DNA of 64,000 bases, from the NCBI GenBank assembly GCA_973895155.1, contig OZ316893.1, forward strand, positions 17,178,670 through 17,242,669, read 5' to 3'. The translations under genes were made by a program, and so were the position numbers. Numbering within the stretch: position 1 is the first letter of the stretch; the number at the start of each line of letters is the position of its first letter. Below, in pieces: positions 18,287-49,084 of this stretch. The notes under the pieces were generated by a model that saw only the letters and a list, made by a program, of their open reading frames with translations, ran no database searches and was not told the DNA's origin. This DNA is from Marsupella aquatica. Its lineage: Eukaryota; Plantae; Marchantiophyta.

Positions 18287-18803
18287 AGTTCAGTTTGGAT
18301 GCACATGGGGCCTTTGAACAGCCGGCAGTAGACGTTGTACATCGGGGCCAGGGGACCAGGGAGTACATCCCCTTGACAGTGAGACAGACTTATGAGGGAG
18401 AGGTTGAAGCTGAGATGGACGAAGATGATGAGTAGATGGATCTGTTTTGTTGTGAGTAGGTGACTCTTTGAAGTGCAATGAGTAGCAAATATGAGCAATA
18501 AATGGATGACTTGTTTGTGCAACCGTAGCAACTTGGTGAGTAGGATGCCAGACAAAAATGGCATGTGTGAGTATGAGAAGCAGGCTGTCAAACACCGAGC
18601 ATGGGTTCAGCAATGTGCCGCAGCCCTATTGGGTGATGTGCAAGAGGCTATTTTGGATATGTAAGGGAACTGTGCATAGTATGAGCTATATGCGTATGTC
18701 CTTGTGTGCGTCTATTCATTGTGTAGCTTCTGTAATGGACTACTACATTCATAACCCGTGTCAAATTTCATGTGGGTGTTGCAGTAACAAAATTATCCCA
18801 ACA

Positions 18804-21714: not shown

Positions 21715-22052
21715 ATGACTCAGTCTCGAATATGAATGACATCATTGTCTACGGAAACTAGTGCGGTCAAATCAGTGTTACCAATCACTCATGGAAAACC
21801 CTATATGACTCGAACTAAGTCAGTATGAGTCACTTATGTTTGACTGATGTATAGATCTAAATACTTGACCCTCTAGTCACTAAAAAGACTATTGACACTA
21901 GTCAATAATATGACTAAGTCAATCAAAGTCACCACTTTTACGACTACTAGTTGCAAGAATGACGTCAGTGATCTAATGTCATAGATGACCGGTTTTAGTC
22001 ATAGTCAGTCGTATTTTATGGTCAAAAATAGGGGGTATTTCTACTAGTGTCG

Positions 22053-27254: not shown

Positions 27255-29136
27255 CAATATTTTGCAATTAGTGGTCAACACTCAACTATGGCCACTAGGA
27301 AAATCATTCAGAGTTCCCAAACGCAACCATCTATGGTTGAGACTGCCAACCTCCTCAAATTCTGACTTGCAAGAATTGTCAAGGGGTCAACACCTATTAA
27401 GGTGTTGGTTGAGATTTCACATGCAAACAACTTGCAGGCTGAAGCGCATTGTTTCTCATCACCATTCATCAACCAAGTCAGGCATACAAGAATGCAATAT
27501 TCAAAAATGGATCAAACAGTTTGGCCAGTTCCATCAGGGAACTTGGCACAATCAGAGTTGTTGAATTTTCTTAAGACTGTAGTGAATGTCCTTGCCAACG
27601 ACTTGGTGACTGTCGTGATTATTGTGCACCCAAGTCTCTTGCTGACCAGAATTATTGAAGCTGTCACTGATCTACCTTCGAGTTATAATGCTCATCTGGA
27701 GTATGGAAGCTATTGGAAGAGTGCAAAAGAAGTCCGCTCATCGCATTTCATGTCGGGTATTATTGAGTCTATTGTTTTGCTTGGAGTCTCCTAGGAACAA
27801 GAACCGGATTGGGAAAAACATTTCAAAGGGTTTCAAGGTCATTTCTTGGCTAAATCTGTGGATCAGCTTGAGCTTGCAAGACTAGCCAATGAAGATTACT
27901 TTGGCCTTTCCAAGCAAGAGGTTGCAGCAAAGCAAAAATCTGCTCTTGGAAATCACTTGCAAAGACTCATTCCTTTTTGGACACCCGGTGGCAGAACCTG
28001 TATATCTAACATTAAGCATTGCAAAATTATCAAGGCAATCATTCTTCAATTTTCCAAAAAGGAAGAAATTGTATTTGACTTCTTTACTGGTGGGCAAGTT
28101 TTATTGAATGCCCTTCGTCTAGAAAGGGAATGTTTCTCTTTTTGTTTGGAAAGGGCGGATGTGAGACCTTACGGCTTATGTGGAGAATCTCAAGTCGTTG
28201 AAGGGTGTTGCACAATTCTCAAAATCCTTATGGAAACTTCCAAGAGGGGAAGGCAGCTCAACGCAAAAATCTAATGCAAGTGGGGCAAAGGAAGGGAGGC
28301 ACTATCATATCATTGGAACAATCTCCCAATTATCATAATTGTCTAGAATTTGATAACAGATTTTCTGATCCTTGTGTTGGTAGGATTAATGTTGGCAAAC
28401 AGATTTGCCATCCTTTGGAATTTGGTGAGGTCCAAATACCGATCTACCAATTAGGGAGTTTCAAAGGACCTCGATCTCATGGAGGAAGAACACCACGATG
28501 GTGGAATAGCTCTATCTCTTCCACAATCTCATAGCCCTGTGTGCAAGCCTTGTGTGGGGTCATTTGGCGAGGTGGACTCAATTGTAAATGATATCGCACC
28601 GGTCGTGCCTGAGGATCCTTCCGATTACCTTTGGGTTGTAACTTGAGTTCAAGAAGCCGTTAACATCATCAATCCATCCCCTCCCCATACTTGGGCAGAA
28701 AATTGGAGTCCCTACGAGGTTGAGTCTGTCATCAAACATTTTGGTAATATTGTCGTGGAACTTGTAGTGGAGCATGCAAATGAGGCAGGTGCCAATTCAC
28801 TCTATCCCACTTCTCACAACTTGAACAATGATATATGTGGCAATAGACTTTTGACTCAACCCTGACTTGGAACATGATTTTGTTTTGTCAACGTACAATC
28901 AATGGACGCGTCATGACTCACCGCAAGATGGCATGTCCAGGTCCTGAGCGATGGATAACTTCTGAAATTCTTAATGCTTATTTTGGTCTGATTGCTTCAA
29001 GAGCATAATCCACGGGCAGCGAGCTCCCGCAGGTTCATCTTTTTGATACTTGGTTCTATTCTGAACTTGTTCAAGGTGGATATAAGTATGAGGACGTCCA
29101 AACATGGACCTCAAAATTGGAGTACTTCTTAACTGA
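27255..29136 (+). pseudogene. Decayed, internally deleted paralog of the ParB-MTase-Ulp1 gene at 30850-35523
   Basis: YFAISGQHSTMATRKII, LVEISHANNLQAEAH.FSSPFI, EYGSY, EEIVFDFFTGGQVL, and Ulp1-region HLFDTWFY. Many stops. Confidence 0.9.
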
Positions 29137-29630
29137 TGTAGAGATGGTCATGGTTTGTGACGCCGATGACATGGTCCTTATTCTATAATCTGATTAACTA
29201 GGCTGTTGTATGCAAGGAGTAGCTATTGATATTGCATAACAATTAGCAAGCTGGCACGAATAAGGGCAATCATGGCGTTAAGAGTAGGGATAAATGTATT
29301 TCAGCTTGAAGACTGCACAACCAAGGCAAACACAATTGAGGTAGTCACTGTCAAGGCCATAAAGGAGAAATTGGGGAAGAGAGGATTCAGCTCTTCAAGC
29401 ATACCATCTTCTTGACAAGCAAGATGGAGCATGGAGGCTCTTCAAGACGCCGGTACGGAGGTAGGCGTGGTAATTCAAGGAAGCGAGTCTCCATAGCTGA
29501 ATATGAAGTTGTGGGGTATGGTGATTGTGCTCAGGATGAAATCTAAATGTCTTGGGTGTGTAGCTTCATTTTGTTAGTTAGGTTAGTGGTTCATAGTCTA
29601 GTCTTAGAATGTTAGGGAAATAAAAGGCTA

Positions 29631-30675
29631 TGTTGCGGGTGGTCGGCGACCATATCTCATTCAATACATCACCAAATCCGGATCTGTAAAGAGCATTGGA
29701 AAGATCTGGTCAAGTTGAGTAAAATCGATATAAAACACTCGGGAAATGGAGGTGTATTAAGGAAGATACGGCCTGATTAGTGTGACCGGTTAACTTGTGG
29801 CCGGAATTAGCAGATTCGGCTTCGGTTTCGGGTTAACCTAAGCTCGACCACGGCTTAGCTTATGTGAGCACGGCTTCAGCTTAGCTCATGTAAGCACGGT
29901 TTCAGCTTAGCTCATGTAAGCATGGCTTCAGCTTAGCTCATGTCAGCACAGCTTCAGCTTAGGCTTAACCCGGGTTTGGATTAGATTGATCCCGGGTTAG
30001 ACTGAACTCGGGTTTGGGTTAGCATAGGTAAGTTCGGGTTCGGGCTCAGCCTAGCCTAGGTTAGCGGATAGCGGGTAGCAGCCTAACCCGAGACCACGGG
30101 TTAGGTCTACTCGGGTTAGATAGGATAGCTAGATTAGCCGAACTCGGGTTAGCTATGTAACTCGGGTTAGCATAGCAGTGAGTACCCCCTCTCGGTTGCG
30201 GGGGCATAACTTTCTCTGTATTTGCCCAAATTGGCTATAATTGACCTCGTTGGAAAGAGGAGCTCAAGCCGCTTCCAACGCTGCTATCCACGCAGCAAAT
30301 GGTTGAATAGAGAAATCGGGAGAGGAGGTGCAAGCTCGCAAAAACCATGGAGGAGGGCCAAATCAGAAGTACATAGTCAATTCGAGATAGAAATAAAGTT
30401 GCGAGTTAGGGTTCAGTAGTTAGAGATAGTGGCGGCTCTGTTAGGGCTGGGATGGGGCTCCAACAGCGTAGTATCCACCCATTTGGGCTCAGTATGAGAG
30501 GATATAGAGCAGCCCCCCCGGTAGAGGCAGGGGGGACTTCAGTTGTGTGATCTCACGTAGACTGAGCAGCAGGGAGGAGCTCTGTGCAAGGAAGGCTGGG
30601 CTTGGAAGCTGTGTGCTGGGGAGAGCTTGGTTGTGCTATTACTCAGGGAGTAATCAGCCACGCTTCACAACAACA
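29631..30675 (+). mobile_element. Probable LTR (TGTTG...CAACA) of another retroelement
   Basis: 5-bp inverted ends, internal tandem repeats, and a TATA + CCCCCCGGTAGAGGCAGGGGG motif shared with the gypsy A 3' region. No TSD found. Confidence 0.5.
29868..29962. repeat. 26-bp tandem repeat, about 3.6 copies
   Basis: GCACGGCTTCAGCTTAGCTCATGTAA units at 29868, 29894, 29920 and 29946. Confidence 0.9.
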
Positions 30676-30849
30676 GTTGGCCAGGTTTGCAAGCTAGATT
30701 GTGGCTCTTTCTAGTAGGCAACACAATTGGGTTCTTTTCCCCCGAGACAGAGCCTTGGTGATAGGTGATGTGTTGGTGATTGTAAACTGTGGGGAGGATT
30801 TCAATTCAATTTGCGGTGAGCACATTAGGAAGGCTGAGACACTGATTGA

Positions 30850-33800
30850 TGGGCAGCAGGAGGAACATTTGAGTCAGAAAATGAGGATGACGGAGAGGAG
30901 GGAAGTGTCCAAGAAGAGAGCAAGAAGACTTTTCAGAATCGGGCGGGGTCAGAGAATGAGTCAGAGTCAACAAGTTTAGAAGGTGGAGTTGAACCAACCA
31001 ACGATGATGTTGAGAGTGGGGAAATTCAACTCCCCCCAGCAAAGCCTCCAATAGAGAAGCGATACGCAAAGACTTCAAAGGGAGTTTCGCCCAGGAAGGG
31101 GAAAGCTGGTGTCGTGTCAGAGTCATCCACACCCAGTGGGAAGAAAAAAGTAGTGGACAAAAAATCACCATCAGGGAAACTAGGCCGGAAGAAGGTTGAT
31201 TTTGACAAAACAAAAGAAGAAGCTAAACTACCTCGGAAGAGAGTGAAAGTCATTGATCAAGCAGATGAGCTGCCTGCGGCGAAAACAAGCCGCAAGAAGG
31301 TTCAACGGGAAGAACAAAAAGAAGACAAGAAACCATCTCGAAAGAGAGTTCTTGTTTCTGACCAGCGCGAAGTCGTGCCTCAAGTGAAAGGTGGAAAAAA
31401 CGTATCTCCGGTTGATAAACAAGAAGAGGCAACGTCTTCTCGAAAGAGAATTCAAGTTGTCGAGGAAGTGCAAGGAATCAAGGACAGAATACAAAAATCA
31501 AGCAAAGCAAGGAAAGTCGCTTCACCAGCAAAACCTGAGGAGGAGAAACCATCTCAAAAGTCTCGGGTTGGACAGAAATCTGCGTCGGTCAGGAAGAAAG
31601 TTGAAAAGGTCGAACCGGAGATCAGGACGCTGAAGCAAAAGGGAGTCGTAAAAGATCCTTCACCAAAGGGAAAGAAAAAAGCAAAACTTGATGTTGAATC
31701 AGTAGTTGTGGAATCAAGGGCAAAGCCTCCTAAGCGAAGGGGAACGACCACAGAGTCGGCTGAAATTGTTGTGAAAACTCCCATGGTTAGAGTTGTGGAG
31801 AAGAAGGCCCCAAATGTTGAGAAGAAGGTTGTCATCACCTCTCAAGCTGTCGTTCACAAGCCCAAGAAAGCAAAGAAAAATCAGGAAGCTGTGGATATTG
31901 ACGAGAACCCTAGTTCCGCGAAGCTAGTTGTTGACCGTGCTCGTCTGGAGACTGCAGAAAAAACATTGGAGTTGAATAAGTCTTGGTATTGTTTTGGGAT
32001 ATCCAAATTTTTTTCTGTCCCGATTGAAAACATCCATCCCCCTCCTGCAAAGATGAATGAGAGACTCCTCAATGAGGAGCATGTCAACCATCTTGCGCAA
32101 CTGATGATGACAAATGCAGGGCAAGAACCTTTACCTGCAGATTTGGTTCCTTACAAGATGATCGACGGAGTACCGAGTTTAATTGACCTTGCGGGAAAGG
32201 ATATTGACACCAAGAAGCTTGCGGAATTCAAGTTCTTTGCCATCAGTGGTCAACATTCCACAATGGCCGCCAAGAAAATTATCCGGAGTTCAAAGACCCA
32301 ACCATCTCTCATGCAAACAGCCAATTTGCTCAAATATCGTCAAGCGCAAATTCTCAAAGGGTCAACTCCGGTGAAAATTCTTGTGGAAATTTCACACGCG
32401 AACAACCTTCAGGCGGAGGCACATCGGTTTTCATCTCCATTTATTGACCAAGTGAAACATGCAAGAATGCAATACAATGATATGGGGCGACCAGCTCGTC
32501 CACTTCCATCGGGTCGGAAATCTCCAGAATTTCAGGTAGGTTCTCCATGAGAGTTGTGAACAAAATTCAGACACTTTGTCCTTCTCTCCTTTCTACGCGA
32601 GAGTCGTGTAGAGCCTTTCCAGTATTTTGGGATTCAAAACTTTGAGCAAGCTAACTTTGAGTTGTTTGGTCTTTCCTCTCAGGAGTATGAAACACTTGCG
32701 AAAGTTACGTTAAAGGTGAATAGCATTAGCGAGTACAATTGGATTTTTTTTGCTCCAGAGAAGCTCTACTCTTTATGGAGAGAGGTTTGCAATAATTGGC
32801 TCAAGGGTAATCTTTTGGATTCAACCGGACAAATGACTGGAAAATTGAAAGAAGCAAAACAGTTGACAGGGACAACATTCCGGGTTTTTGAGGGTGCCAT
32901 AGAATCCGACATCTTGGAAATCCTCCACAAAGTGAATTTTGGGGAGGCGCTTTTGATGAAAAAGAAACATGCTTTGACTGATCTTCCCGCCATGTCAGAA
33001 TTGGCAAGAAAAGAAAAGAAAACTGACAAACTTAAGGGGGCAATACTTCAATTTTATCGGGAGAAGTACGAAGGGGTTTTCTCGCAAGGATCAACTTGGG
33101 GTGATGTAGTTCAGCAATATAATTTCATTGATGAGGAATTGGATCGTTGTTGTGCAATGGTGGACACTGGATATTTCAAGAGCCTTGTGAAGGTGTCATT
33201 AAAAGCAGAGATGCCGGAGCCACTGAAAAATAGGTTGAGAAATATTCACCAAAAGAGGTTTGGCGGCTATCTCCATGCAAGAATGGATCCTTACCGAGTT
33301 TTCTATACTGGAAATCTGCTCGCGTCTGCTGATCCTCCTTTTGATTCGGCTAGCTGCAAGGAGTCAATATTGGCATCTCTAGCGATTGTTGATTTGACCC
33401 ATACTGGAAACCGGTTTGGACGCAGTCCAAAATCTTGAACTTCTTGAAGATCGTCGTGAATATCCCAATCTGGTAACAGTTGTTTTTTTGTTCGTCGTGG
33501 TATTATTCTTGCAAGAATAATTTAAGTTGTTTGAGATCTCCCAGAGAACTATAATGCGCACCTTGAATATGGTTCATTCATGAGGAGTTATTTGGTTAAT
33601 GCTCCTTCGCAACACATGAGAGGCAATGCGGACATGGTTCTTTTCCTTGGCGTCTCCCAAGATCAGGTTCCTGATTGGGAAAAGCATTTCAAGGATTTTA
33701 CCTGTCACTTTGTGTTGGAGGAGTCCGACCTCGAGGAGACAATCAAGCCAAGTCGAGAGGATTATTCCAATATTTCGAAGGAAGATATGCAGGAGAAAAA

Positions 33801-35523
33801 AAGGGACACATTGATCTCACGACTTGAAGGCCTTGTTCCTTTCAAATTGATGACTGGACGGTCATTCACATTGAATATTAAGCCCAGTCGCATCCTGCAG
33901 AGTTTTATTCATGCATTTTCTTCGAGGGAGGAAATTGTCCTGGATTTTTTCACAGGAGGGCAGGTATTGAAGAATGCATTGATGCTTGAGTGTGAGTGTT
34001 TTTCATTCTGCTCTGACCGTGAGGATGTCTCTGACCTCATGACTTATGCAAAGAATCTTAAATTGTTAGTTTTGGTTGCACAGTTTGCCAAATCATTGTG
34101 GAAACCTCCTGGCCTTGAAGGGAGTTCGACTCAGAACTCCAATGCTAGTGGAGCAAAAGAGGGCCAACATTATCAGATTGCCGGTATAGTTTTACATTAC
34201 GCCGGGGTGGAAGCGGAGCAAAAGTTTCTAAGTTCCATTGGGGAGATGAGAATTGGTCCATCAGTCGTTCCAATTGCAAGTTGCGAAGGATTTCCTCTTC
34301 TAATGGCTGAAGGAGGTTATGGTTTGGCAAATAATTCTGAAAACTTACAGGCAGGCACGGGGTTGATTGCGTTCAACAAAACTCTGGAAGATGTTGTGGA
34401 TGATGTCTCCCTATACACGTATCGTGTAGATCCTCAAAATTTGTTTGACCCTCCAGGGTTAGAGTGCAACAAAGGTGTTAAGCAATCTCTTCTGGTTGAT
34501 GCTTTAGTTCTTCGAAGTGGCCCAGTTTTTGATGATTGTGAGGCAAAAACTACACTCGAGGATGTCGAGAAGGGGGTGGTGGATTGTGGACCCTTAAAAG
34601 AGATTGTTGTGGAGGAGGTTGGGATTGTGGAAAAAGATCACACTCCGATTGAATTTCAATGCGATGACAATGTTGACTCTCGTAGCGCTGAAGTAACAGG
34701 ACAGAATGATAACTCATTTTCTCTCACATCGAATCTTCCTGAGGTGTCAGAGAGGCAAGTCGATTGTGCGGAGGCAACCAATGAGGCAGGTGCCAATTTC
34801 CTCTCTCTTGTCTCAAGTCATAAAGTTCTAAACATAAACAAATGTCCTCTCCCGTCTCCGGATCCAATGGATAACAAAACGAGGATTGAAAATTGCCTCA
34901 GTGATCTGTTGGATCAGGATGCGGTTCTAGTCAAGACTAATGGGTGCCTAGTAACTCGTGGACAAATGAGGTGCATGAGTCCTAGAAATTGGATAAGTTC
35001 CGATATTCTAAATGCCTACTTAAGTCTCATAGTGGAGAGGAATGAACATTTCGACAGGGAGCTTCTGAAGTGCCATGTGTTTGACACTTGGTTCTATACT
35101 ACACTGACGTCAAATGGCTACTCTTACCGATCTGTGGAGGCTTGGACTTCACGACTGAAATATTTCTTAATTGATTGTCATCAAATATTTGTCCCCATTC
35201 ACGAAGGTAGCGATCATTGGGCGTTAGTTGTGATTGACATGGAACACAAGTATTTAGAATATCTCGAATCTCTGCATAACAATAGGCCAGAGGTTCTTGA
35301 AAACTTAGCCAAATATGTCAAGGATGAAATTCAAAGCAAAAGTCACAAGCAAGTCTTAGCTACTCTATGGCCAAAACATAGTCCCAAGGACATCCCAAGA
35401 CAAACTTATTACTATAATTGTGGTGTGTTCGTTATGAAGTTTGCGAACTACCGTAGTTTGGACCTTCCTTTTGATTTCACAGGAGAGGACATAGATTTGG
35501 AGAGGAGAGAAATCATTTTTTAA
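30850..35523 (+). pseudogene. Multidomain gene: K/E-rich N-terminus - ParB/Srx-like domain - degenerate N6/N4 DNA MTase-like fold - Ulp1 (C48) SUMO protease
   Basis: VPIENIHPP..NERLLNEEHVNHL..FFAISGQHS (ParB-like). LAIVDLT..FSSREEIVLDFFTGG (MTase-like). WISSDILNAY..FDTWFY..IFVPIH..HWALVVID..RQTYYYNCGVFVMKF (Ulp1). Intron from ~32537; disruption near 33420-33580; 5' end lost. Confidence 0.75.
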
Positions 35524-35689
35524 GTCTATTCAGGAATAGATTAAGCTTTCCTCCGCAATACAGTGATTTCTGCATGAGACGCGTGTAGAGGGTGACAGAC
35601 GGGGTATTTGATTTCAAGGACTGACTTGACTTCAAATGGTCTTTGGTCAAGACTGTTCCAATGACTAACCATCCGGATTCGATATTTTT

Positions 35690-36866
35690 ATGTTTGTAGA
35701 GTTTGTTCCCAAACTCCACTCAGAGATCAAGCAAAAGCTCTTGATTTTTGACCTTAATAAAGTTTGTTTTGATTCCGTAAAGAGTAAAAGCTCCGGACCA
35801 TTTCGGAGGCTCACATCTGTGAGGGGCATTCACTGGGGAAGATGGGGCGGGATTTATGTATGTGGAGCGTCCAGGACTTCATAAATTTTTACAAGTGATT
35901 TTCAGGTATTACGATGTCGCGATTTGGACTTGCGCGGGAAGGCTGAGAACAAATGAAATGATGGATCTTGTTTTCAACGATGCTGAACGAAAGCAGTTCA
36001 AGTTTGTATTCACCCAAGAAGAAACATTTGACACTGGCTTTTTGAGGTCAGATATTACAGATGGGAAGACAAACATACTTCTTAAGGAAATCCAAACTAT
36101 TTGGGATCGTTTTGGCAATAGATATGGTCCGACAAATACTGTTCTCATCGATGACTCTCCTCTGAAGTGTTTCGCAAATCCAAATGTTAACACGTTATTT
36201 CCAGTTCCATTTGTTCACAACATGGGAGGCGACACTTTTCTAATGGAGATATTGCTTCCACTTCTTCAAAGAATGCACAATGCTTTTGATGTAAGACACT
36301 TTCTGAATGTTAACTACCCAAAATGGTCCACCTACAATAAGGGTGAAGCCCAAAGGAGGCATTGTGATATCTTTGCAGGACTCACTCAAGCCTGGGGGCA
36401 CCGCGTTGCTGGCATCGTCGATAATTTCACTGTCCTTGATCACACGGCAGACGAGATTTCCTGGGAAGTGAAGCATACCGTGCAAAGTTCGCCACCGGTG
36501 TAGGATATGAGTGACCGTGACATCAATTCAATTGCTAAAGGTCTACTTGGAGATGGTTATTCCGGCCCATATTTGCAAAATAAGCGGCAATTTGTTTGGG
36601 AAGTCCTAAAAACTAGGGACCTTACTTCTAAGTTTAAAAACTTGTATCCTAAAGACGCTTGCAACCGAGATAGAAAGTTTGATAAGTCAGGAAGTAGACT
36701 TACTTGCTCAAATATGTTTTGTAGCAACACACATTCAATGATCGTTATTAAAAATTTGGAGACTTGTAACATTGAGGGGAGGCCTATTACAAGTAAACAA
36801 TTGTTATGGACTTTTGTATGGTTCCCGTTAGTGGGTGACAATGAAAATGTGACATTACTCATGTGA
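35690..36866 (+). pseudogene. FCP1/SCP (NIF-family) HAD phosphatase-like gene
   Basis: KLLIFDLNK (motif I variant), ERPGLHKFL..YDVAIWTCA, LLKEI..IW, NTVLIDDSPLK..NP. Frameshift at ~35860 and stop at 36501. Confidence 0.85.
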
Positions 36867-37073
36867 CTATTCTCCACCAAATTCGTACGCCAAAAATGTA
36901 TTTTACATGGATTTGGAAATTTCAACTGGTGTTTAGGAAACTTGAAAGAGTGTTCTAGAAATTCCAGTTCCAAGTTTTGAAAACTTCATTTAAGTTTGTT
37001 GGATAATGTATTTATTTAATTTGGAAATTTTACCAAGCCACTTTGGAAAAAAGAATTTCCAGAATTAGTGAAA

Positions 37074-37538
37074 TCACTGATACATGCAATCGTCGTCCAA
37101 TCCAGCTTTGAACCTATCCTCATCCTGTCGAAACCCATCCTCTCGATCCAGAAAAAAATGAGGTCCGGGATAGCGACTCCGACTCTGGTCGTTCGGGATG
37201 TTCGAATCTGAAAAGCTCACACGTCCGGTGTCTGCTTGGATGTCTCTGAAAAAAGCTGTCCTTTCCACCCGATACACATTGGAAGGATCCGGGTCGTGAA
37301 TAGAGAACCTCTCTCGGAAAGGAAGTGGAGGCGAAGGATCACGTGACAGAAGGTGTCCAGTTCTGTGGCTAATACCCTCATCCGGGGCTAGCCACAACCT
37401 GTTCCTCTTGGTCGACGTCTCTGGGCACTGCGTAAAAGACAGAGTCAAATCTAAACCCAGATCTCTAATCAACCTCCAAACCATCGCCTTTGGCGGATTG
37501 CAGCTCTCCGATTTTGCTATTTGCTTCCCCTTATCCAT
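37074..37538 (-). CDS. Hypothetical 154-aa ORF (MDKGKQIA...)
   Basis: Open ATG-started frame within the cargo block; no recognisable domain. Confidence 0.35.
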   Translation of the reverse strand: MDKGKQIAKSESCNPPKAMVWRLIRDLGLDLTLSFTQCPETSTKRNRLWLAPDEGISHRTGHLLSRDPSPPLPFRERFSIHDPDPSNVYRVERTAFFRDIQADTGRVSFSDSNIPNDQSRSRYPGPHFFLDREDGFRQDEDRFKAGLDDDCMYQ

Positions 37539-37579
37539 TGAGTCAATGGAAACAACGAATGCAAAACTCAGGGAGAAGA

Positions 37580-37672
37580 GAAGAGGTGAGTCCGGGCAGA
37601 CCAGAAACGAAATGAAGGGAAGAGGTGAGTCTGGGCAGTGCACAAAAAAAATGAAGGGAAGAGGTGAGTCGG
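37580..37672. repeat. 39-bp-period repeat with core GAAGAGGTGAGTC, 3 copies
   Basis: Cores at ~37580, 37619 and 37658, just upstream of the 37538 ATG on the minus strand. Confidence 0.8.
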
Positions 37673-38372
37673 TGCCTCACAGAAACGAAAGGGAGAAATG
37701 CGTTTAGGGTTGAACAAACACGAAGTTGAACAAACCCAAAGTTGAACAAACACTACACTTTGAGAGAGTCCAAACAATCATATCAACCACAAACAAAAAT
37801 ACGTACAGATTGAAGGTATAATTATTCACCGTACAACTGTACGAGTACATGCATTTCTGATATCTGCACAAATATGCACTCAGGAAAGAGACTTATGGTG
37901 CGTCTATCTCCTTTAACGGCTCAGATCCGAACATCCAGTTTAATAGCGTCGGGCGCTAGTATAGGTTCCAAAGAAAACCTTAGAAATTCACACTCAACCT
38001 ACTCCAAGTCAGAAGACTCGGACTCGCTACTGCTAGACCTATCGGTAGACTTGGCTTCATCATCTATAAATTTGCTTCTAGGTCCATCGTTGAGTAAAGG
38101 CTGATGGATGAATTTCCTATCTGAACCTCTCCTTAACCTTAAGCCCTTACTCTCCCAAGTAAGTGTTCTCCTCTGTTCTTCTTTGCGTGCAGCATATTCT
38201 GCATACGAGGGCAACACGAAAGGCTTCTGAGGAGAAACGAGAACCTCCAAAGATTAAAACGTTCTTGAAGATTCCACTCCGATCTGGAAGAGGAACGGAA
38301 CCACATTAGAATTGAAAATGAAAATGGGACAGTTCCAGAATTGATAATGTAAAGTGAAGTAGCTTACGGGCA

Positions 38373-41230
38373 TTACTCAAAAGAATCCGAATCTTTTGTT
38401 TCTCCCGTCGTGTGCCTCTCCTTCTCTTTTCCTTCATTTTCCTCTCCTTGTCCTCCTGAAGCATCATCTCCAATAGCATCTCCCTCCTCTTCATCTTCAG
38501 AGTCAAAATTTAAGACAGAGCAAACTTTATCTTTTTGTTTTCTTCCCACATCTTTAGCGGGAGACGAGGAATTGACATCTTTTGGAATCAATAACTCCAT
38601 CCATGTCTTTTTCGCAATCTCAACAAACTCTTTTCGGTTTTCTATACCAAGAATAAAACGACCACAATAGTCACCAGCAACAAATGTACTTCCCGAACCC
38701 ACAGTCCAGTCCATGACAATGTCACCTGGCCGAGTGATTAACTCTAACACAGATTGCATGAACCCAACGAACAAGCGTCCATTGCTAGCAAACGCTACTG
38801 GAGGAGTTGGATCCTTCCTCACACTCGGGAGACCAATAAGGTTAGTGATAGAAGGATCTTCAGTTGCAGAGAGGGGTCAAAACTTGGGGTCCTTTGGAAC
38901 CTTAACCTTTGACGAAACACGACTGAACAGATCCAATCTCAATGTGAAAACCTGTGAAATCCCAACAACTTCCTTTGTTAAGATGCCGACGATCCAACCA
39001 GAAAATCATTACAATCATGGCATAACAATGAATTTTGGATAGCGCCAGGCGCTAACAAAGAATATCCCCTTAACCAAAGGGTATATGAAAACATTTTTAG
39101 CTAGCGCTCGGCGCTAACAAAGGACAGCACAAAGAGTGAGAGAATTTACCTTACAATCACTTCGGGCCATGTACATTGGAACTCCCATAACCACGTTCAC
39201 GGTTTTCACACATTGAAACTTTTGAGACTCCTGGCTCGCGGCGATGACCTGCGAGATCTGATCATACTCGCCGGTATGCAAAATGGCCAATATACCATCA
39301 TCTGCTAGAAAAGGGTCCATTGCGCGAAAGAATGAACCAACAATTCTGTGATCTGGGGAATTCCATTTTGGAGACTTATTCTCTAAAAGGGATGGGCGCA
39401 GTCCAGTTGGGAGGTAAATGAATCCAGCATCAACTCCAAATGATCTTATCTTTCCTCCTCTTATGACTCCTTTCTCCCTTAGACCAAGCAAGACTAGGTC
39501 TTTCACCCACTTCTCCACATTTGACACCCAAGCTGGTTTCTGCTCTTTTGTGAACACACTCTCAAAGAAGTCCATTACGCTGGACTCAACAAAAACATGC
39601 CTAGAAGTCTTAGACTTGAACTGTCCAACATCTCGTTGAACACCAGCAGAACTGGTCTCCATTGCCATGTACAAGCGATACAGATATCTCTTGGCTCGCG
39701 TCCGGTTGCGAATGGTATAGTCTTCCTTGTCTCCGTACTTGGACTGCCAAATTGTGCTAAAAAACTTTGCCTTCACTATTTCACCGTATGTCTTGAAATC
39801 ATTGGTGATGTTCAAGACCAAAGCTTCAACGTCTCCACTCCTCCTAGCGTCAGACGATCAGCAGGTAGGATCGACTGGACTTGCGAAAGAGATGTCTGTA
39901 AGATTGCAATTGCAATTCCTTCCACCAAACTCCACATGTGCCATGTATGACACCACTATTTAACAGGGTCATCATTCACACTCGGGGGATGGTAAAATTG
40001 TTTTCTGAGCTCGGGTGTACAGTGAGCGACAAGAAGAGTACAACGCAGTTGTGGATCCAAGTAGGAGACAACAGTGAACAGACGCGCGCGGTCCATTGTA
40101 CAAACTATAGAGTCCGGCTTCTTTTCGCGTTTGTTCCTCTCCGTAAGAATGTACATTTCTGCAGTCGCAATCACCAAACTTTGGGCTTATCAGGGGGTAA
40201 TCTTGGATGTCTTTATGCTCCACTCCTTCATTGCCTCCTTCATCATGGCAGCATACCGCTTACCAGTCTCTTCAGATGACCACGGGCGACCTTGACTTGT
40301 CGTAGCAGCCAAGTCAAGCTTAAATTGAAGTGAATACAACTTAATCTTGTTTTCACACAAGATGTAAACCAATGCTTCCAATGGCATCTGCTTGGTATAC
40401 CAAGACCCCTTTCTTGTCTTGGCACAAACAGTTTGAAATCGCTTGAAGCTGCCGGGGTCGATGATCGGCTTGTAGGCCTCCAAGTCATGAGTTAAAATCC
40501 AATTGATTCTATTGGCATCGAGAATCCACGATGGTTCCACCACAGCTTGCCCTAACCTGTAAGATATAATGGCAAATATTAGCGCCTGGCGCTAACTAAC
40601 CTTGCAAAAATCAAGCGCAATCGACCAAATTCAATAGCATTTATGCAACTTGAGGAATACTTACTGGTTCACCGTGTGCATAGCCGCTTCAAACTCAACT
40701 AGAGAACCTTGATCTCCCTTAAAAACAGTGCATTGAACACGCGGATGGTACTTGATATTGTCTGGATTCTCATTTGTTACTTGGGTCCACGAGTAGAGTC
40801 GATGATTCCCGTCAAAAACACAGAACATCTTATCCTTCAAAATGTGGAAATCTGGATCAGTAGCGCATTCTGCTTCAAACAAGTCGTTCTGGGCAACCCA
40901 AACAGCATCCCAGGTCTCCCAAATTTTAGGCGTGCAGAATTGAATGACTCCTTCTGAATCCGTGGGCTGGACGTAAAACCACATCCCAATTGAAGAGTTG
41001 TACCCAGAGCTCCGAAATGAATCCTTGAGCTTATCGATAGATGCACTATTTTTCTGTAAAGTCCGAACGATTTCCATGTGAACAAGCCGACAAAGAGGGA
41101 TACACGGCGGCTCTTTCTTCTCCCCCCTGAAATTGACTCCAAATAACATTGCGTATTTCTCGATCACAGCATCCATGGACAGAACTCCCTCGCCCCCGTC
41201 CTCCATCGAAAAATCTATGTAAGACTCCAT
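38373..41230 (-). pseudogene. ParB/Srx-like + beta-class N4/N6 DNA methyltransferase-fold gene (exons 41230-40665, 40556-39150, 38951-38373)
   Basis: IPLCRL..IVRTL..SFRSSGY..FCVFDGNHRL (ParB). VDAGFIYLPTG..FFRAMDPFLADDGILAI (motif IV-VI region). ITRPGDIVMDWTVGSGSTFVAGDYCGRFILGIE (motifs X-I-II). Both GT-AG introns preserve the frame. Several premature stops and one frameshift. Confidence 0.85.
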
Positions 41231-44200
41231 GATGCCTCATTTTGGCTTTGGAATCGCTTGACTAATGTTTCGCAAAGAGTTCGACGCAAACGAACGAGTG
41301 ACTCTCCGAGTATAAACTGATCCGGAGAATGAGGACTCGGATGTTTCAGAATGGCCAGGAGAATGATTCTCCATGTTTGTTTAAGATGCACACACATGCG
41401 GAACCCCACCGCAACGTGCTTCTCGCGTGATGCAATGTTTCTTGTGGTGCTGTACCGATATGGACGAATGATTGACAATGACCCTAAACGTGCATAGAGG
41501 TCGTTCTAACGATCAAGGAAGACACTATCGCAAAAAGATCTTATCTGATATACCCTGTGGCAGACCGACATGTATGACAAGTACACATAAAAAAGCACGA
41601 GCATCCAAAAGCAGACCTACTAAAGGTTGACACTTGTCACATTTTAACTCATTTATAGGTACTCGTGAATATATTTATCCAGGAATTTGTTATAAATTGT
41701 AACGATAAACGGTCAAAGTTACTGTTTAAAAAGACCATTTATGTCAATATTCTACTTTGATCTAATATTAGCGCCTGGCGCTATTATTATGCTAGACTAA
41801 AATATATCTTGAAATAAAGGATTTTAATAATAGCGCCTGGTGCTAGTAACATTGTACTAAAAAATCATGCGAATGATTGGACTGAAGCGAGAAAGTTTTT
41901 GTAATAAACGGCTTCTATTTCTATCAATTTTATGAAAGTGCCAGGCACTATTTTTCTTTTAGTCTCAAATAGGGCTTAAATGTGTAGATTTCAATAATAG
42001 CGTCCGGCGCTAGTAACGAGACACTTCAAAATGGCTTAGATGTTTGGACCCAAAATATGCGAGTTTCTATAAATAATGACCGTTACATCTTGACATTTTT
42101 ATCAATTTTATGATAGCGCCTAGCGCTATTATTATGATAACTTCTACTCCAGCTCAAATGGATCGATTTTAATATTAGAAGAGGGTAATATTGTCGTCTG
42201 CCATAAATAAGATGCTATTTCCAAGGAAACCCGATACATTTCAGCTTAAATGTTGGCATAATGAGTAGCTGTTGTAAGATGTTAACCTGTGTCAGTAACC
42301 AAAATGGCCGTTGATCTTTGCTTTTGTTGTTCATTTTTGGGCTCTTTCAGATGTGGAAAACGCTAGCGCCTGGCACTACTATATTACCCCGTCGGTTACA
42401 ACGTCAAAACAATTAATTCAACAGTAACTATCCACCGAATTGATGGTTTTGTCGTTTCTTGAACGGTAAGAAAATCCGTACCCAACGGATCCTATAACCG
42501 CTCGACGGCTCTTTCCATTTGAGACTTGGATTAAGAAGAAACCCTCAACCATACAATCTAGCTTCATTTTACCATGTATCATTATTTTATATAGTTGGTT
42601 ATCTTTGGGGAGTTAGAATGTCTCGCATTATTCGAATAACGTGTCCGAATACAGGTGACGTTGTGACGATCCCTGTGTCGATTTCCAAAACCACAAAACA
42701 TGTTAGTGATAATTACCTGTGTGGAAGATTTGGGGTGACGGGAAAACATATTTTGAGTGTCAGAACTTTGAACGATGGGCCCGCTCATTTTGATATTGAA
42801 GCGGAGGACGTTGTTTGGAATCTCGAATATGGCGTGGAGTACTTGATTTTCATTCAACTAAGGGACATCGTTCAGGTCAAGGTGGAGAGGCCTCAGGTGG
42901 CTCACGATGTGATTGACCTTACGTCCGACGCTGAATGCTCTAAGGGTTCTCCACCAATCTCAAAGGGCGGTGAGGTCAAGAAGGAGGGCGGCAGTACCAG
43001 TTTGTTGATGCTCCAGGTACCCCCCATATTGATTGCGTCGGAGGGGTGTGATGATGGAGACACTCTAACTCGTCCTGTTCTGGTTGTGTACAGAAGAAGC
43101 GCACTTGATGCCTTGTTGAAGTCAACTGGACAAAGTGAGTTATCGCGCTTTGTTAGGTCTGAGGCATTCATTCACAAACAAGTTGAATGCTTACTTGTAG
43201 AGTACAATGGGAATACCATATTTGAGCTTCCACCTGTTCAAGGTGTTGGCTCGAAACAGGGATCGTCTGCAAAACATGGATCGATCCAAGGATTGCTACC
43301 TCTGGACTAGAATCTTTCCTACTTTTGCTAATGTCGTTCCGAAGAAGATGTGGGAGTTTGGGAAAGTAAGTTGTAGTGGTTCTCTCGAATGCTGAAATAG
43401 AGCATGTGAGTTTTACACCAGGACTCAAGTCTGAAACTGTAATGGATGGGATGGGACCCCCAAGCTCTCTGGTCAGCATTGTCCTGGGAGGTTGATCGAT
43501 GTTGGAGGAATTGTTTGTCGCTATTGCCTTCAAGTTCCATTTTGTGTTGAGTCTTGTCCAGCAAAAATGTTTTATATGTACCCGCAAGTTTTGATCGAAA
43601 ATGACACTGCAAAACACATGTCACGACTTGCAATCCATATGGGGGTGCACAACCATCCATGTTGGAAGGTCTGGTCTAGAAGTGCTGAGAAAATAGCAAT
43701 AGAAGAGATACGGAGACAGCATGAGAAGTCTCCTTCTTCTACACCGTGCATTTTGAAAAATGAGATCACTGGATCTTTAATGGATGCCGTAAGTGAGTCT
43801 GTGGATGACATTTCAAAGCTAGAAGAATCAGAAATCTGGAAATCACTTATGCTCGTTTCAACACCTCAGAAGTTTTCTGCGTTATGTAAGAGCGTTCGTA
43901 AAGATCAGGTTGGTCAAGGTGATTTGGAATATCTGGTTTGCATGCAGAAGAATGTTACGTTTCCTTTTCTCCAAAGATATCTTCTTCCTGGGCAGGGCTG
44001 TAAAGGTGATAGAGCACATATTTTCAAAATGACTATATCAAAGGTCATGGATCGGGAGTAGATTTACTACGTCAGATGAAGAAAGGGGGGCCTCTAGAAG
44101 GAGCATGGGTGAGCTTTGATGTGATGAAAAGGATGTCCAAAGAATGGAGTACTTTTAGTGCACATGTGTATGACCATAACTATCGAGCTTTGTGCACAAT

Positions 44201-46636
44201 ATTTACTTGTGAACTCAAAGTAGAGGACACTGCATCGCTTGAGAAAGCTTGGAGGTTGATGATCGAAGTCGCTTTGGAGAACGGTTTAAAGGGCGTGGAA
44301 ATCCATGGTTTCATGGCAGATAACGCTCAAGCAGGATGGATAGCGGTTAGGAATGTCTTCTTTGATGGCCATCCAAACCCGGAGAGAGCGATCGGATGCA
44401 TTCCACTTTTATCAGTCTTTGCATCGGCACTCTATCAAAGGAGTACTTGAAGAAAAACGTGCTGAACATCGAATCCTTTGGGACAAGTTGCGCAATGCTG
44501 CTTCATTTGTGGAAGCCTACAGGGTTTCACGAGAGATTGATTCATGGTGGAGATCTGGAAATTGTATTCCTGGGAAACTTAGAATGTTGCAAGGATGGAT
44601 TGCTTGGTGGGTTGTGAAGTGGCGTCAGTGGGGAAACTTCATACGTTTGGTGAGTCAATGTATACTAGCGCCTGGCGCTAGTATTAATCTCCCTTTTCTA
44701 ATTGTGATCTTTACTCATGTTTTTTGCCAGCGCCGGGCGCTAACGTACAAATAGCTTGATAGCGTCTTCAATCTTCACAATCATCATGAAAAACATTCAT
44801 ACCTTTCGTCCGCCCATTTTGAAGTTCCACTTTATTTTTTATTTGATATATTGTACTGAATTTGACAAAACTCTTTTTCAGAGCAAAAGTGCACTTGAAG
44901 GGGGGATGATTCCCAATTGCACTGGTTCTGAAGCTGTTCACGGAATCATGAAAGCATGGTAGGGAAAGAAAACAGTTGGTTTGTTCGAAGGATGTAAGAC
45001 CGATCACAACAGAGCAATCTCACAAATAGCAGCCTATACAGCATATCGTGAAAGGCTCCATCGGGGTACCGGTCCAACAGTGTTTGAATTGGCTTTTCGT
45101 TCGGCTGACCAGGCAGGGTCCCCAAAACTCTTCGAAGAAGCCTCTAATATGTTACTCGCAAATGCAGCTGAATTTAATTTGGAGAGGGATTCTCCGTTGA
45201 ATGGGGATTTTGTGACAAAGTCTATGAAAAGAAAAGGTCCAGCGACCGGGAATGTCTCTCCACAAGACTCCCATCGACATGACACGGTTCTCATAACTAC
45301 ACCAAATACCCGAGGTTGCAAGAGGAGAAATTTGAACTCATCCGAGTTTGAGCACATTCCGATACTTAGAACTCCTCCTTCGAATCCAGTTATCGATTTG
45401 TCTGAAAGTGGCTCTCCAGTTTCCCATCATGTCACTCAATCTTTCAAAGTTCCAGAAAGTGCTCTGAACACCACTCCATTCATTCTTGTAGACACTTTGC
45501 TTTTTGAAGTGGACATTGTACCTGGGTCTTGGCATCTGCGGAGAGTTTCCAGACACGGTGCTGGACCACAGTGTAATGGGACGTTGTCTGGAAGTTGTGA
45601 TAGAGATGAGTGTCGTAATCAAATTAAGAAGGTCGGATATCCTTCAAATGCAGGGGTTTTCGGAATAGTCGTCAAAGGTTACCGCTTATTCAGAGGTGAA
45701 CACCATCCAGAGCTTGTCTGGTTCTGCCCCACTCGTGATTGGTGGAAGAGCCGCCCTCGTCGAGGTATTGTGAACCTCCCTACTTTCCCAGACTTTTTGC
45801 CAGTACAGAAAGGCACTCATCTTTCAAGTCTGGAGTTGAATTTCCTTCAAGAGCAGGGCATTGAAGTCTTGAGAGGAGGTGCTATTTCACGTTGTCCTTC
45901 TCCATTTGAACTGAGAATCAACATTGACGTTTTTCCTGAAAAGATCGATCTTGCACAAGTTAACATCCGTTTTTGAACGAGAAACGGGCGTGCGATGAGC
46001 TCCAGATCAAATCTCACTTAGGAATATCGTAAAAGGATTGAATCAACAACGAAAGAAACAATGACTTTGATCAAAACTATGGAAGTTTCATCTGGAAATT
46101 CATACGGGAAACGATTCCAGATACGCACACATGCACATTTACGAACTGCAAATACTTACTGGGTGCAGATTTGCATTTTCCCTTGTTGCTCTTGTGAAGA
46201 TTTCTTTCATCGACATTCTTGAGGGAAACCTTTCATGCCATGTAAACACTTGTACTGGGTTTACAAAGTTATCTGCAAGCTTGATCCTGTGGACAATATC
46301 CTCGCAAGCCAACCGATTCTTACCATTGCGGAACTGCGTTATATTCTAGGGAGGCAGAATGCTGATGGTTTATAGGAAGGTTTAGTATTCTAGTTTACGT
46401 TCAACGGGTATGTAGGACTTGTTGTTTCGTAACGGTAACTTTGTTTTGGTTAGCGCCCGACGCTAGTAAACAACATTTGGTTTCTTTTCAACACGGCTCA
46501 ATCTTTTGTGGGTTTCACAAAAAACTTAATTTGTTTTTACAATTTTACGGATGTGTAAATTTCATTGTACGGGTAACGGAGATTTGTTTGTATTCAATCG
46601 TCACTTGGCCTTCAGTTTTGTTAGCGCCCGACGCTA
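39040..46636. repeat. Dispersed 15-bp palindrome TAGCGCCWGGCGCTA (at least 11 good copies)
   Basis: Starts at 39040, 39102, 40580, 41769, 41831, 41936, 41998, 42114, 42364, 44666, 44728, 46451 and 46622 (0-2 mismatches each). All lie in introns or intergenic DNA. Confidence 0.92.
42618..46375 (+). pseudogene. Mutator-like transposase: GCM-like Zn domain - DDE - SWIM
   Basis: VSCSGSLEC.N..C, CRYC..C..CPAK..IHMGVHNHP (GCM/WRKY-like). WVSFDVMK, FMADNAQA, SDAFHF, TGSEAVH (D, D, C/DxxH, E). CSCEDF..PCKHLYWV (SWIM, ~46184-46260). Intron 44650-44881; several stops and frameshifts. Confidence 0.8.
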
Positions 46637-47734
46637 GACTCCATTTCCTTACTTGGTTGCAGTTTGTAGTTTCCAGGTCTGAACGTGTGGATTTCTTTTG
46701 CATGCATTCTCGAGGATGACCTTTTCTTGCCTTATAAACCATTATCCTCTGATCATTCCGGTAGATGGTGAGAGGGTATTTTGTTAATGATATTTTGTAA
46801 CGGTATCAAATGCTTGGTTAGGACTAAGCGCTAGTAAAGGCATCTTCCGATAATTGTCGTTTTCCCCATTGTTTTGAGTTTATGTTGAATTTGACATCTT
46901 TGGTTTGGTCCAAAATTAAGCCTTTTTTGTGAATGATAGTACCAAGTCTCTTGTTTTGTTCCACTATTTTTCCTGTTATGATCATCACTGTTTCCTGTTT
47001 CCTGTAACGGAGGTCGGGCCCGAATTTTCGAATGTTTTTTTTATTGGTGTTGCTCACAACAGTACGGATGATGACAATTCCTTGAATGTTTTTCCTGATG
47101 TGAGTAAAAACATTGCTGATAACAGTAAAACTTTCCTGATATGAGGAAAGTGTTTGCTCGTATCAGTAAAAAAATCTCTTGTTTCCTGGCACGGTGTAAA
47201 GCCTCGGATAGTATAGGAAAATTATAAATGCCTGTAGTATAACAAATCTATGAAATGAATGCATGACCATGCACATAGGAAACATATTATTAGACAAAAT
47301 AAAACTAGGATATCCAAAACGGAACCATTGGATCCCAATATGTAATGATGGTAGTACTCTTTCCTTGAGAAGAAAGCGGCAAGGTTTTAATGAGGCTACA
47401 TCAATGGGAATACCAATTAGATAATCTAGGGTTAAAACTGTGGTTACTTTACACACCCATAAACTAACCAAGGGGGAGTGTTGTAAACCATAGTTTACAC
47501 TTAACCCTAGAATAAGGTTACCTTTAACCTTATATGATGTAACCCAATGGCTACATAATGCCATACCTTAATGGAGAGAATGATCTTTTATCATGACAGA
47601 AAACCTTCTCTCACAACAATATATGATGAAGTTCTTTATTGAACGCGAATAAAGTTGGCATGAGTATGGTATCAATGTCTTCATATAATTTGTATTTAAG
47701 CATGTATTTCATTTTCATCATGCTTCCCATATCC

Positions 47735-47937
47735 CATGACATATATTATGACCTTGACATTTGTGCCTCGCTTAAACATTTTTTCTCTCATGGACATGTT
47801 TTGCTCATCTCAATATCTTTTATCACCTCGACATATTTATATCACTTGACATCCTTTTATCACCTTGACATATTTATATCACTCGGCATCTTTTTATCAC
47901 TCGACATCTTTCGTGCAACACACGAGCATGGGGCTAG
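47735..47937 (+). mobile_element. Helitron 3' end
   Basis: CGTGCAACACACGAGCATGGGGCTAG|T preceded by degenerate CACCTTGACATC repeats; paralog of 48590-49084. Confidence 0.7.
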
Positions 47938-49084
47938 TACTACTATAATACCCTATCCGGCCAAAAGTGGATGTAGTTGGTTTACAAAATCACTTTTGGA
48001 GGGAAGATTCAATGACCCTTGTATTTATAAGCTGTTTTATCCTAGCCTTTCATTTGTCAAAAACATTATCTCTAACCCAAGCAAGACAAAGTATTTTGGT
48101 ATGCACAAAGATTCTCTAAGAAGGGGGCATGATGGCATACACTTTATGTGAATGCCATGTGTTGCCATTGGAATGGGGCACTTGGAACACCATTATGAGG
48201 GGATAATTAGGGACTAGGAGACAAAGGTCAAAGTAGGGAGGGGAATTAATGATACACCCATGGGTGAAGGGATGAATAGTATCATACCCTCCCATAGTCC
48301 CATGAGTACAAGATAAGGGATGAGACAAAGTGGAGCAAAGGAAGGTGAAAATACAGATAATAATAATAAGGCAATACGAGGAAAAAAGGAGGAGAAAAGG
48401 GACATCATTGCCTTTCATTGGGTTTTTTTTTCAGGGGAGGGGGGGGGGAGAAGGGAGAGGCAGCCCAAGAGAAAGGGGGAGAGGGAGGCAATGAGGAGTA
48501 CGGGGGTTGTCACCCTCCACCTAGGGTTGTGTAAATATGCATGTTTATGTTGTCCTCACCTATCTCCCTGATCACTTTTGCAACAATCTCTCTTTGACAT
48601 CTTTCTCTTCTATGGACATCTTTTCCCAACCTCAGCATAGTTTTCTTGCCTTGACATCTTTTAATCACCTCACATCATTTCTCCCCTCCATATCTTTTCT
48701 CCTCTCGACTTCTTTTGCACTCCTTGACATCATTTTGTCTCCTTGACATTTTTTCTCAACTTAACATTTTATCTTTTTCTCATCTCGTCATCTTTTTCTC
48801 ACCTTGACATCTTTTCTCACCTTGCCATCTTTTATCTCATCTTGCCATCTTTTTCTCTCCTTGAAATCTTTTCTCACCTTGAATTCTTTATCTCATCTCT
48901 CCATCTTTTTTCTCACCTTGACATCTTTATCTCATCATGAAATCTTTTTCTCTTCTCAAAATATTTTTCTTGCCTTAACATCTTTATTCACCTTGACTTC
49001 TTTTCCTCACCTCAACATCTTTTTTCAGTTCAAGATCTTTCTTCACCTTGACATCTTTTGTGCAACGCACGGGCATGGGGCTAG
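47938..49084 (+). mobile_element. Non-autonomous Helitron
   Basis: 3' hairpin GTGCAACGCAC..GGGCAT followed by CTAG|T (49081-49085). The 5' region TACTACTATAATA resembles plant Helitron starts. Degenerate ~17-bp repeat array at 48590-49060. Confidence 0.65.

Follow-up and report, generated by a model that had tools for sequence, protein, structure and literature searches.

A decayed Mutator element of about 10 kb, likely equipped with a self-recognition module, was found in 64 kb of DNA from Marsupella aquatica (Marchantiophyta; contig OZ316893.1 of assembly GCA_973895155.1, positions 17,178,670 to 17,242,669 of the forward strand). This whole stretch is referred to below as the window, and all positions are counted from its first letter. 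The element with its likely module, which we regard as well supported, comprises a transposase gene and an accessory gene on the opposite strand (gene C); the evidence supports their union in one Mutator-superfamily unit, tied by a private 15-bp palindrome. We propose, with about even confidence, that the accessory protein binds the 14 sites of this palindrome as a dimer and so marks or shields the copies of its own element, a form of self-recognition that would likely counter silencing. The span of about 37.08-47.2 kb, with ends at 37082 and ~47197, is tentative because no terminal inverted repeat (TIR) or target site duplication (TSD) was found. Copies of this element's family are numerous in at least two organisms. 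Comparison material consisted of public contigs of four runs (X1-X4, two organisms) and of protein collections.

Organization of the element

Genes, gene parts and palindrome sites are arranged along the element in the following order.

37944-37958: one palindrome flanking gene C on its 3' side, with one mismatch
38373-41230, minus strand: gene C, the spliced accessory gene, delimited by open reading frames (ORFs) and GT-AG junctions
38373-38876, minus strand: last exon of gene C, S-adenosylmethionine (AdoMet)-binding half of an N4/N6 methyltransferase
39040-39116: palindrome dyad (39040 and 39102; 62 bp) within the final gene C intron, RNA fold z -4.2
40557-40664, minus strand: intron 1 of gene C, 108 nt, GT-AG
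40580-40594: palindrome in intron 1 of gene C, RNA fold z -0.6
40665-41230, minus strand: exon 1 of gene C, with an FDGNHRL (DGQHR/ParB-like) domain
41769-42378: six palindromes (41769, 41831, 41936, 41998, 42114, 42364) in the upstream region shared by gene C and the transposase
~42618-46360, plus strand: transposase gene, decayed, located by tblastn of the relatives P0001, P0002 and P0047
~43330-43640 (approximate), plus strand: GCM-like DNA-binding region of the transposase
~43960-44650, plus strand: DDE core of the transposase, both Asp kept
44650, plus strand: GT at which the transposase intron opens
44666-44742: two palindromes forming a 62-bp dyad within the intron of the transposase gene, RNA fold z -4.9
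~46150-46260, plus strand: SWIM-like CxC...CxH of the transposase (CCSCEDFF...MPCKHLYW), a motif also present in P0047
46429-47010, plus strand: four GTAACGG direct repeats, out of six occurrences window-wide; possible subterminal region, all within 580 bp downstream of the transposase
46451-46636: two palindromes (46451 and 46622) flanking the transposase on its 3' side

Private palindromes

When up to two mismatches are allowed, the 15-bp palindrome TAGCGCCNGGCGCTA has 13 sites in the window, where 0.06 are expected, and all of them fall between 37944 and 46636. A 14th site, at 41936, carries three mismatches. No copy is present in 27.2-37.9 kb. All 14 sites are confined to GT-AG introns, the shared upstream region and the 3' flanks. 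The original prediction held that a private palindrome links the transposase with the minus-strand gene, and the exclusive placement of the sites in this segment bears it out.

An exact spacing of 62 bp is kept in four pairs of sites. The two upstream dyads represent a 167-bp tandem duplication, while the remaining spacers are unrelated; three independent equal gaps of 62 bp have a chance probability of ~1e-4 to 6e-4. In contigs of other genomic copies, too, palindromes occur in pairs, separated by 47-48 nt of unrelated sequence. The possibility that the dyads are small copies of a miniature inverted-repeat transposable element was rejected, since their spacers are unrelated. Substitutions within the palindrome sites, read by eye, are C>T or G>A in 10 of 12 cases, a bias expected as the signature of methylated, silenced copies.

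We also considered that the palindromes have no protein partner and represent hairpin repeats spread by local tandem duplication, either neutral or with a role at the RNA level, as a source of small RNAs or an aid to splicing. Dyads do fold into long hairpins (z -4.2 to -5.4), one pair of dyads arose as the 167-bp tandem duplication, and other genomic copies miss one or both intron palindromes of gene C (joints 39068>39142 and 38939>39142). This explanation is at odds with the occurrence of the 15-mer at 14 places with unrelated flanks, the constant spacing around unrelated spacers, the unremarkable folding of the lone palindrome in intron 1, and the location of some sites in intergenic DNA that looks untranscribed. 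We regard it as quite improbable.

Transposase

Both Asp residues of the DDE core, in FDVM and FMADN, are conserved in the window copy, and the Glu was not located. The copy is dead, broken by frameshifts at ~43256, 44037 and 44387 and by several in-frame stops, in agreement with the decay noted in the original prediction. The transposase has 342 representative relatives (E of 1e-3 or less), most of which are fragments.

Assignment to a superfamily was addressed through the relative P0002 (549 residues, 49% identical to the window copy). Its AlphaFold model, based on 148 sequences, reached a predicted local distance difference test score (pLDDT) of 88. In a Foldseek search of PDB with this model, the top three hits all fell on the transposase of ISCth4, with E between 2e-4 and 1e-3. 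This is an IS256-family enzyme, and IS256 transposases are the bacterial kin of Mutator. The hit at rank 4 was the DNA-bound GCM domain 1odh_A (E 8.8e-3, probability 1.0, TM 0.46 on the target). A protein-language search of the transposase was consistent with this result, with MULE (Mutator-like element) in all 10 of the best 10 named Atlas clusters (0.94).

Family models gave a different picture. The Pfam MULE model (PF10551) matched none of 20 relatives and none of five window ORFs, and none of the 20 scanned relatives matched any Pfam family. The Pfam SWIM model was likewise unmatched, though the CxC...CxH motif is readable. Definition of the ends by TIRs and TSD, suggested along with the original prediction, failed: inverted-match searches of this copy returned just the palindromes. 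A TSD of 8-11 bp is typical for Mutator elements, but MULEs without TIRs do exist. Modelled fold thus supports a transposase of the Mutator superfamily, for which the Pfam model and the ends provide no support. The GCM-DDE-SWIM reading stands, with SWIM as a putative assignment, as does the predicted head-to-head placement beside a spliced gene, on the basis of the ISCth4 and 1odh_A hits, the CxC...CxH motif and GT-AG introns.

Gene C and its relatives

The last exon of gene C matches the C-terminal half of prokaryote-type N6_N4 methyltransferases in Pfam (PF01555, E 1.8e-8). A hidden Markov model (HMM) that we built from seven phage and plasmid methylases, and which contains the catalytic DPPY, detects the motif-I half with E 3.5e-14. 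This half matches 140 phage and 89 plasmid records, and the matching methylases are stand-alone enzymes, none of them fused to ParB. For motif IV, (D/S)PP(Y/F), our HMM aligned no N-terminal half in any ORF within 26-48 kb, which include those of gene C and of two upstream sequences described below, gene B and its shortened copy A. By eye, the place of motif IV reads YLPTGL in gene C, DLPENY in gene B and DLPSSY in copy A. Judged from sequence, these methyltransferase-like domains are probably catalytically dead, because no catalytic motif is recognisable.

Exon 1 has seven relatives with 42-72% identity, and FDGNHRL is invariant in all eight aligned rows; the motif also occurs in four further relatives. 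Several signals below threshold accompany it. The DGQHR model matches 4 of 11 relatives (E 3.2e-5 to 0.06, all under the cutoff), DndB is reached at 3.6e-4 and DUF1015 at 0.018-0.019, and the Atlas neighbours found by protein-language search include ParB_N and DUF6551. Profile alignment with hhalign puts DGNHR onto the DGxHR of a phage ParB family, with P 0.011-0.03 and a probability of 1.6-3.9%. DGQHR, DndB and DUF1015 form one ParB-like clan. The weak signals agree in direction, toward the ParB superfamily, to which the N-terminal domain of gene C likely belongs.

Searches beyond these relatives were negative. Exon 1 found no match in longer proteins, in phages (E up to 1) or in prokaryote genome contigs, and no ParB-related match in PDB, either as a single sequence or as a profile. 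The 31 single-sequence PDB rows (E up to 10) contain designed ankyrin repeats and ferritin and were taken as chance. No CTP-binding motif or ParA partner was identified here. Of the predicted spliced fusion between a ParB domain and a beta-class methyltransferase fold, splicing (GT-AG) and the AdoMet-binding half were upheld, and profile searches recovered the latter as well; the ParB part stayed below threshold in these searches.

A separate affinity concerns the exon 1 relative P0153, for which the clusters closest to residues 92-281 in the protein-language search are those of DUF3723 (0.96, 189 of 256 features). Pfam does not back this link, and our literature search found no paper that joins DUF3723 and ParB. 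DUF3723 is an accessory gene family of the fungal Starship giant transposons.

In many other copies, 38244 is joined directly to 38692. The 447 bp that they lack (38245-38691) contain a portion of the methyltransferase motif, so that gene C is commonly present as a deletion derivative.

Two distant relatives of gene C on metagenome contigs, L087 and L090, each possess private inverted repeats next to the gene, which differ from the palindrome described here. In L087, 36% identical to exon 1, two copies of ATCTCGGC-N7-GCCGAGAT are located 95 bp apart (883-1000), in the intron that follows the same exon as exon 1 of gene C. The eukaryote-like contig L090 encodes a DGNHR protein of 656 residues (DGQHR model, 3.2e-5), and three foldbacks of 114-128 bp with zero spacer, centred on CATTTCTGCGATCGCAGAAATG, are found on both sides of the gene, at 383-666 and 3115-3235.

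These relatives bear on another explanation of the same 10-kb element, in which it is the transposase that binds the palindromes, through its GCM/WRKY-type domain, for transposition or for transcriptional activation of cognate copies, and gene C has some other role. The GCM-like fold of the transposase and the clustering of palindromes upstream of it and in its 3' flank agree with such a role. Half of the sites, however, are in or beyond gene C, far from the candidate ends, and GCM-type domains bind asymmetric sites as monomers. The contigs of gene C relatives with private palindromes show no transposase, a weak argument as these contigs are short. In favour of the explanation, sequence-specific activation of cognate copies by a MULE transposase is described in the part consulted of a 2026 preprint (10.64898/2026.08.24.746577). 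As a whole, we find this explanation unlikely.

Extent of the element and upstream genes

Upstream of the palindrome-bearing segment, the following features were recognized.

27255-28323, plus strand: copy A, a shortened, internally deleted duplicate of gene B that retains the tail of the ParB-like region and the beginning of the methyltransferase-like region
29200-30870, no strand: abundant repeat unrelated to the element; boundary marker that truncates the 5' end of gene B
30871-35523, plus strand: gene B, with a Lys-rich N-terminal region, ParB-like region, middle region, methyltransferase-like half and Ulp1/C48 protease
~32000-32547, plus strand: putative ParB-like region of gene B, from the appearance of the sequence; hhalign against the phage ParB family, P 0.022
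~33790-33960, plus strand: methyltransferase-like AdoMet half of gene B, own HMM E 0.002 (weak)
34987-35496, plus strand: Ulp1/C48 protease of gene B, PF02902 E 4.9e-28, residues 485-654 of ORF 33535-35523
35690-36503, plus strand: NIF/FCP1-type phosphatase-like gene of the haloacid dehalogenase (HAD) type, Pfam PF03031 E 3.2e-15 (ORF 35823-36503), profile positions 38-160, with a frameshift
37081-37082, no strand: breakpoint at which homology changes from the NIF-side repeat to sequence flanking gene C on its 3' side; may be the left end of the Mutator unit

Gene B is covered by ORFs 30850-32550, 32560-33438 and 33535-35523. It has no start codon, begins at the break at 30870, and contains two in-frame stops between 32548 and 32559. 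The final frame, of 662 residues, encodes the methyltransferase-like region and the Ulp1/C48 protease together, and the protease retains its catalytic His (in DHWALV) and Cys (in NCGVF). Where gene C has the DGNHR-type motif, gene B reads ISGQHS, and no match to a ParB-type fold was obtained at threshold in Pfam, NCBIfam or PDB. The original prediction of a second gene combining ParB, methyltransferase and Ulp1 thus holds firmly for Ulp1, weakly for the methyltransferase-like part, and does not hold at threshold for ParB. In tblastx comparison, 27255-27539 of copy A corresponds to 32230-32514 of gene B and 27549-28323 to 33423-34191, and the gene B stretch 32515-33422 is absent from it. The methyltransferase-like part of copy A is detected by Pfam N6_N4_Mtase with E 0.0025 and by our HMM with E 0.004. 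No tblastx similarity connects gene C with copy A or gene B, confirming that two different gene lineages of the ParB-methyltransferase type are present, as had been proposed.

The predicted NIF phosphatase next door is also recovered. Its upstream piece LLIFDLNKVCFDS sits in a different frame and includes the place of the DxDx(T/V) catalytic motif, which reads DLNKV; in this single copy, it could reflect decay or a pseudo-enzyme. Gene B, the NIF gene and copy A are TE-borne (TE, transposable element).

The breakpoint at 37081/37082 was observed in all four runs, which contribute the five contig pieces, among those listed, that end at 37081. Loose ends behind it number two in X1, three in X3 and five in X4, with an agreement of 0.53-0.65 and continuations that differ, and one loose end each in X1 and X3 stops before 37082. 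No bridging piece occurs among the 32 pieces listed (of 1061). On the other side, one X4 contig departs from the window at 47197, a weak candidate for the right end.

According to the original prediction, gene B, the NIF gene, gene C and the transposase travel as a fixed set within a single giant element of Mutator type, larger than 16 kb. Each part occurs in multiple copies in all four runs, and the depth of near-identical unitigs is alike: 176-227 over gene B and NIF and 242 at 37160-37383 in X2, and 111-166 over gene B, NIF and 37181-37315 with 197 over the transposase in X3. The window differs from unitigs by a similar 1-3% across gene B, NIF, the flank of gene C and the transposase. Equal depth is a weak argument, because contig depth cannot serve as copy number, according to the tool's own warning. 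Several observations speak against the fixed set: the absence of the palindrome from 27.2-37.9 kb, the startless gene B that abuts an unrelated abundant repeat at 30870, the breakpoint with its differing continuations and absence of bridging pieces among those listed, and the lack of any inverted match between 26.2-31 kb and 45.9-48.5 kb. In addition, copy A, a deleted second copy of gene B 3 kb away, suggests that B-type sequences move or decay alone. We hold the single larger unit to be improbable.

Ulp1 genes are known as cargo of plant MULEs, in the Kaonashi type, which favours the larger unit. Gene B resembles these in having an Ulp1/C48 gene in a transposon-rich Mutator context. It differs in that Ulp1 shares an open frame (33535-35523) with a methyltransferase-like domain downstream of a ParB-like region, and in that the link to the transposase is a candidate one. 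Our literature search found no paper on ParB-like and Ulp1 domains with a transposase in plants; among the matches listed for ParB and Ulp1, papers dealt with protein purification or bacterial ParB, and none with a transposon.

Surroundings of the element in the window

The window is eukaryotic, plant-like, and rich in transposons. A Ty3/gypsy retrotransposon at 3606-26223 has 850-bp long terminal repeats (LTRs) that are 95% identical, and reverse transcriptase (RT), RNase H and integrase domains. RT/RNase H ORFs upstream of it (681-3396) suggest a second Ty3/gypsy copy sharing the left LTR. Inside the retrotransposon lies a complete CACTA element of 12.4 kb (9620-22048), with Tnp2, DUF4218 and DUF4216 ORFs, TIRs CACTAGTAGAAATACCCCCTATTTTT and the 3-bp duplication TCG. 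Its ORFs with a PHD finger and BRCT (12318-14649) look captured or accessory.

In the abundant repeat at 29200-30870, the summed contig depth is 50-100x that of its neighbours in four runs, and a tandem array of 26-bp units is embedded at 29853-29962. At its end, 30870, loose ends in X1, X2 and X3 go on into one common other continuation, which was not found anywhere in the window. We tried the explanation that gene B and NIF are an insertion into this repeat and rejected it, since the usual continuation of the repeat does not follow 37081 or appear elsewhere in the window. Just past the candidate right end, tandem arrays with units of 18, 37 and 57 bp extend over 47817-49059.

A putative self-recognition module and its parallels

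Three precedents guide the proposal of a self-recognition module, VANC21 of VANDAL21, the ParB genes of red algal Plavaka and Mutator elements, and the ParB-methyltransferase gene of an Ectocarpus Sola1 element. Dimers of the gene C protein would occupy the palindromes, cooperatively at paired sites, and the bound protein would serve to mark or shield copies of its element. The methyltransferase-like domain, probably catalytically dead, may act as a DNA- or cofactor-binding module, not as an enzyme. Both the identity of the palindrome binder and the anti-silencing outcome are predictions. The original prediction spoke of a chromatin and anti-silencing toolkit; self-recognition and anti-silencing are a reasonable part of it by analogy with VANC and algal elements, and the missing catalytic motif agrees with mimicry, while the four-gene set is not supported.

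A number of observations weigh against this proposal. The tie between protein and palindrome is one of co-location alone, and the GCM-like domain of the transposase is an equally plausible binder. Paired palindromes could act at the RNA level through their hairpins. The ParB-type domain of gene C remains under threshold in the family models of Pfam and NCBIfam and in PDB, the hhalign probability is 1.6-3.9%, and no helix-turn-helix was identified in the protein. The AlphaFold model of exon 1 (eight sequences) has a pLDDT of 40 and is unusable. Among relatives, L088 shows no palindrome, and the pair in L087 may be a simple 95-bp tandem duplication. Finally, neither TIRs nor a TSD were found for the Mutator unit, and like unitig depth and divergence from gene B to the transposase would also fit a larger unit.

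The comparisons that follow draw on parts of the cited accounts. The Ectocarpus element Sola1-1_Ec32 has an accessory gene for a ParB-like domain and an N4C/N6A methyltransferase, suggested by its authors to bind and modify its own element (PMC12477816). In both cases, a large DNA transposon encodes a two-domain accessory protein opposite to its transposase. The brown algal element has a Sola1 transposase, in contrast to the Mutator/IS256-like one here, and private palindromes are not mentioned in the parts of PMC12477816 consulted.

In the red alga Bostrychia, PAG3 of a giant Plavaka element joins a ParB domain and a 2-oxoglutarate (2OG) oxygenase, has adjacent arrays of inverted repeats, and led to a self-binding hypothesis; homologous accessory genes occur in Plavaka and Mutator elements of Chondrus (10.1101/2025.02.11.637652). 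Shared features are a ParB-type accessory gene in a DNA transposon with inverted repeats nearby and, in Chondrus, the Mutator context. The partner domain differs, an oxygenase in red algae and a methyltransferase-like domain here. Repeats of PAG3 form tandem arrays beside the gene; in the present element, single sites and 62-bp dyads are scattered over introns, promoter and flanks.

The Arabidopsis MULE VANDAL21 (Hiun) offers a parallel in layout. Its anti-silencing protein VANC21 binds a motif that is concentrated in introns, in other non-coding parts and upstream of the transposase, and the target motifs evolve by tandem repeats (PMC5735166). The resemblance, of layout only, is that of a short family-private motif in introns, other non-coding parts and the region upstream of the transposase. 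The VANC motif YAGTATTAY is asymmetric and occurs in one orientation, whereas the motif here is a 7-N-7 palindrome. That a ParB-like protein can counter silencing is exemplified by the anti-silencer VirB and its virS site (10.1101/2023.06.01.543266). The gene C protein, a predicted dimer, shares with the dimeric proteins of bacterial ParB-parS and of VirB a likely GxxR/DGxHR-type N-terminal domain and clustered short palindromes near its own gene; it differs in its sub-threshold similarity, its eukaryotic host and the splicing of its gene.

The original prediction did not recognise the combination from any described plant TE family. This was too strong, as transposons of brown, red and green algae are known to carry ParB-methyltransferase or ParB accessory genes (PMC12477816; 10.1101/2025.02.11.637652, in the parts consulted). 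The present case is new in its Mutator setting within a plant-like genome, in palindromes that are dispersed yet paired at a fixed 62 bp, in the occurrence of other, lineage-specific palindromes in relatives, and in the union of methyltransferase-like and Ulp1 domains in one frame. In a bolder and rather doubtful generalization, eukaryotic transposons would have their own ParB/parS-like module, in which a protein with a ParB/DGQHR domain and a dead methyltransferase protects or marks copies through lineage-specific palindromes in 62-bp dyads, a logic that might recur in plant Mutator, algal Sola and Plavaka, and perhaps fungal Starship elements with DUF3723.

Self-recognition of transposons and their escape from silencing have been worked out in few cases, such as VANC in Arabidopsis. 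In the element described here, a candidate protein and its candidate sites, the 15-bp palindromes with fixed 62-bp pairing, can both be read from the sequence, and the abundance of the family in two or more organisms would make tests of binding and anti-silencing direct. If the proposal is true, the range of ParB-type accessory genes in transposons, so far described for algae, would come to include a plant-like genome and the Mutator superfamily.

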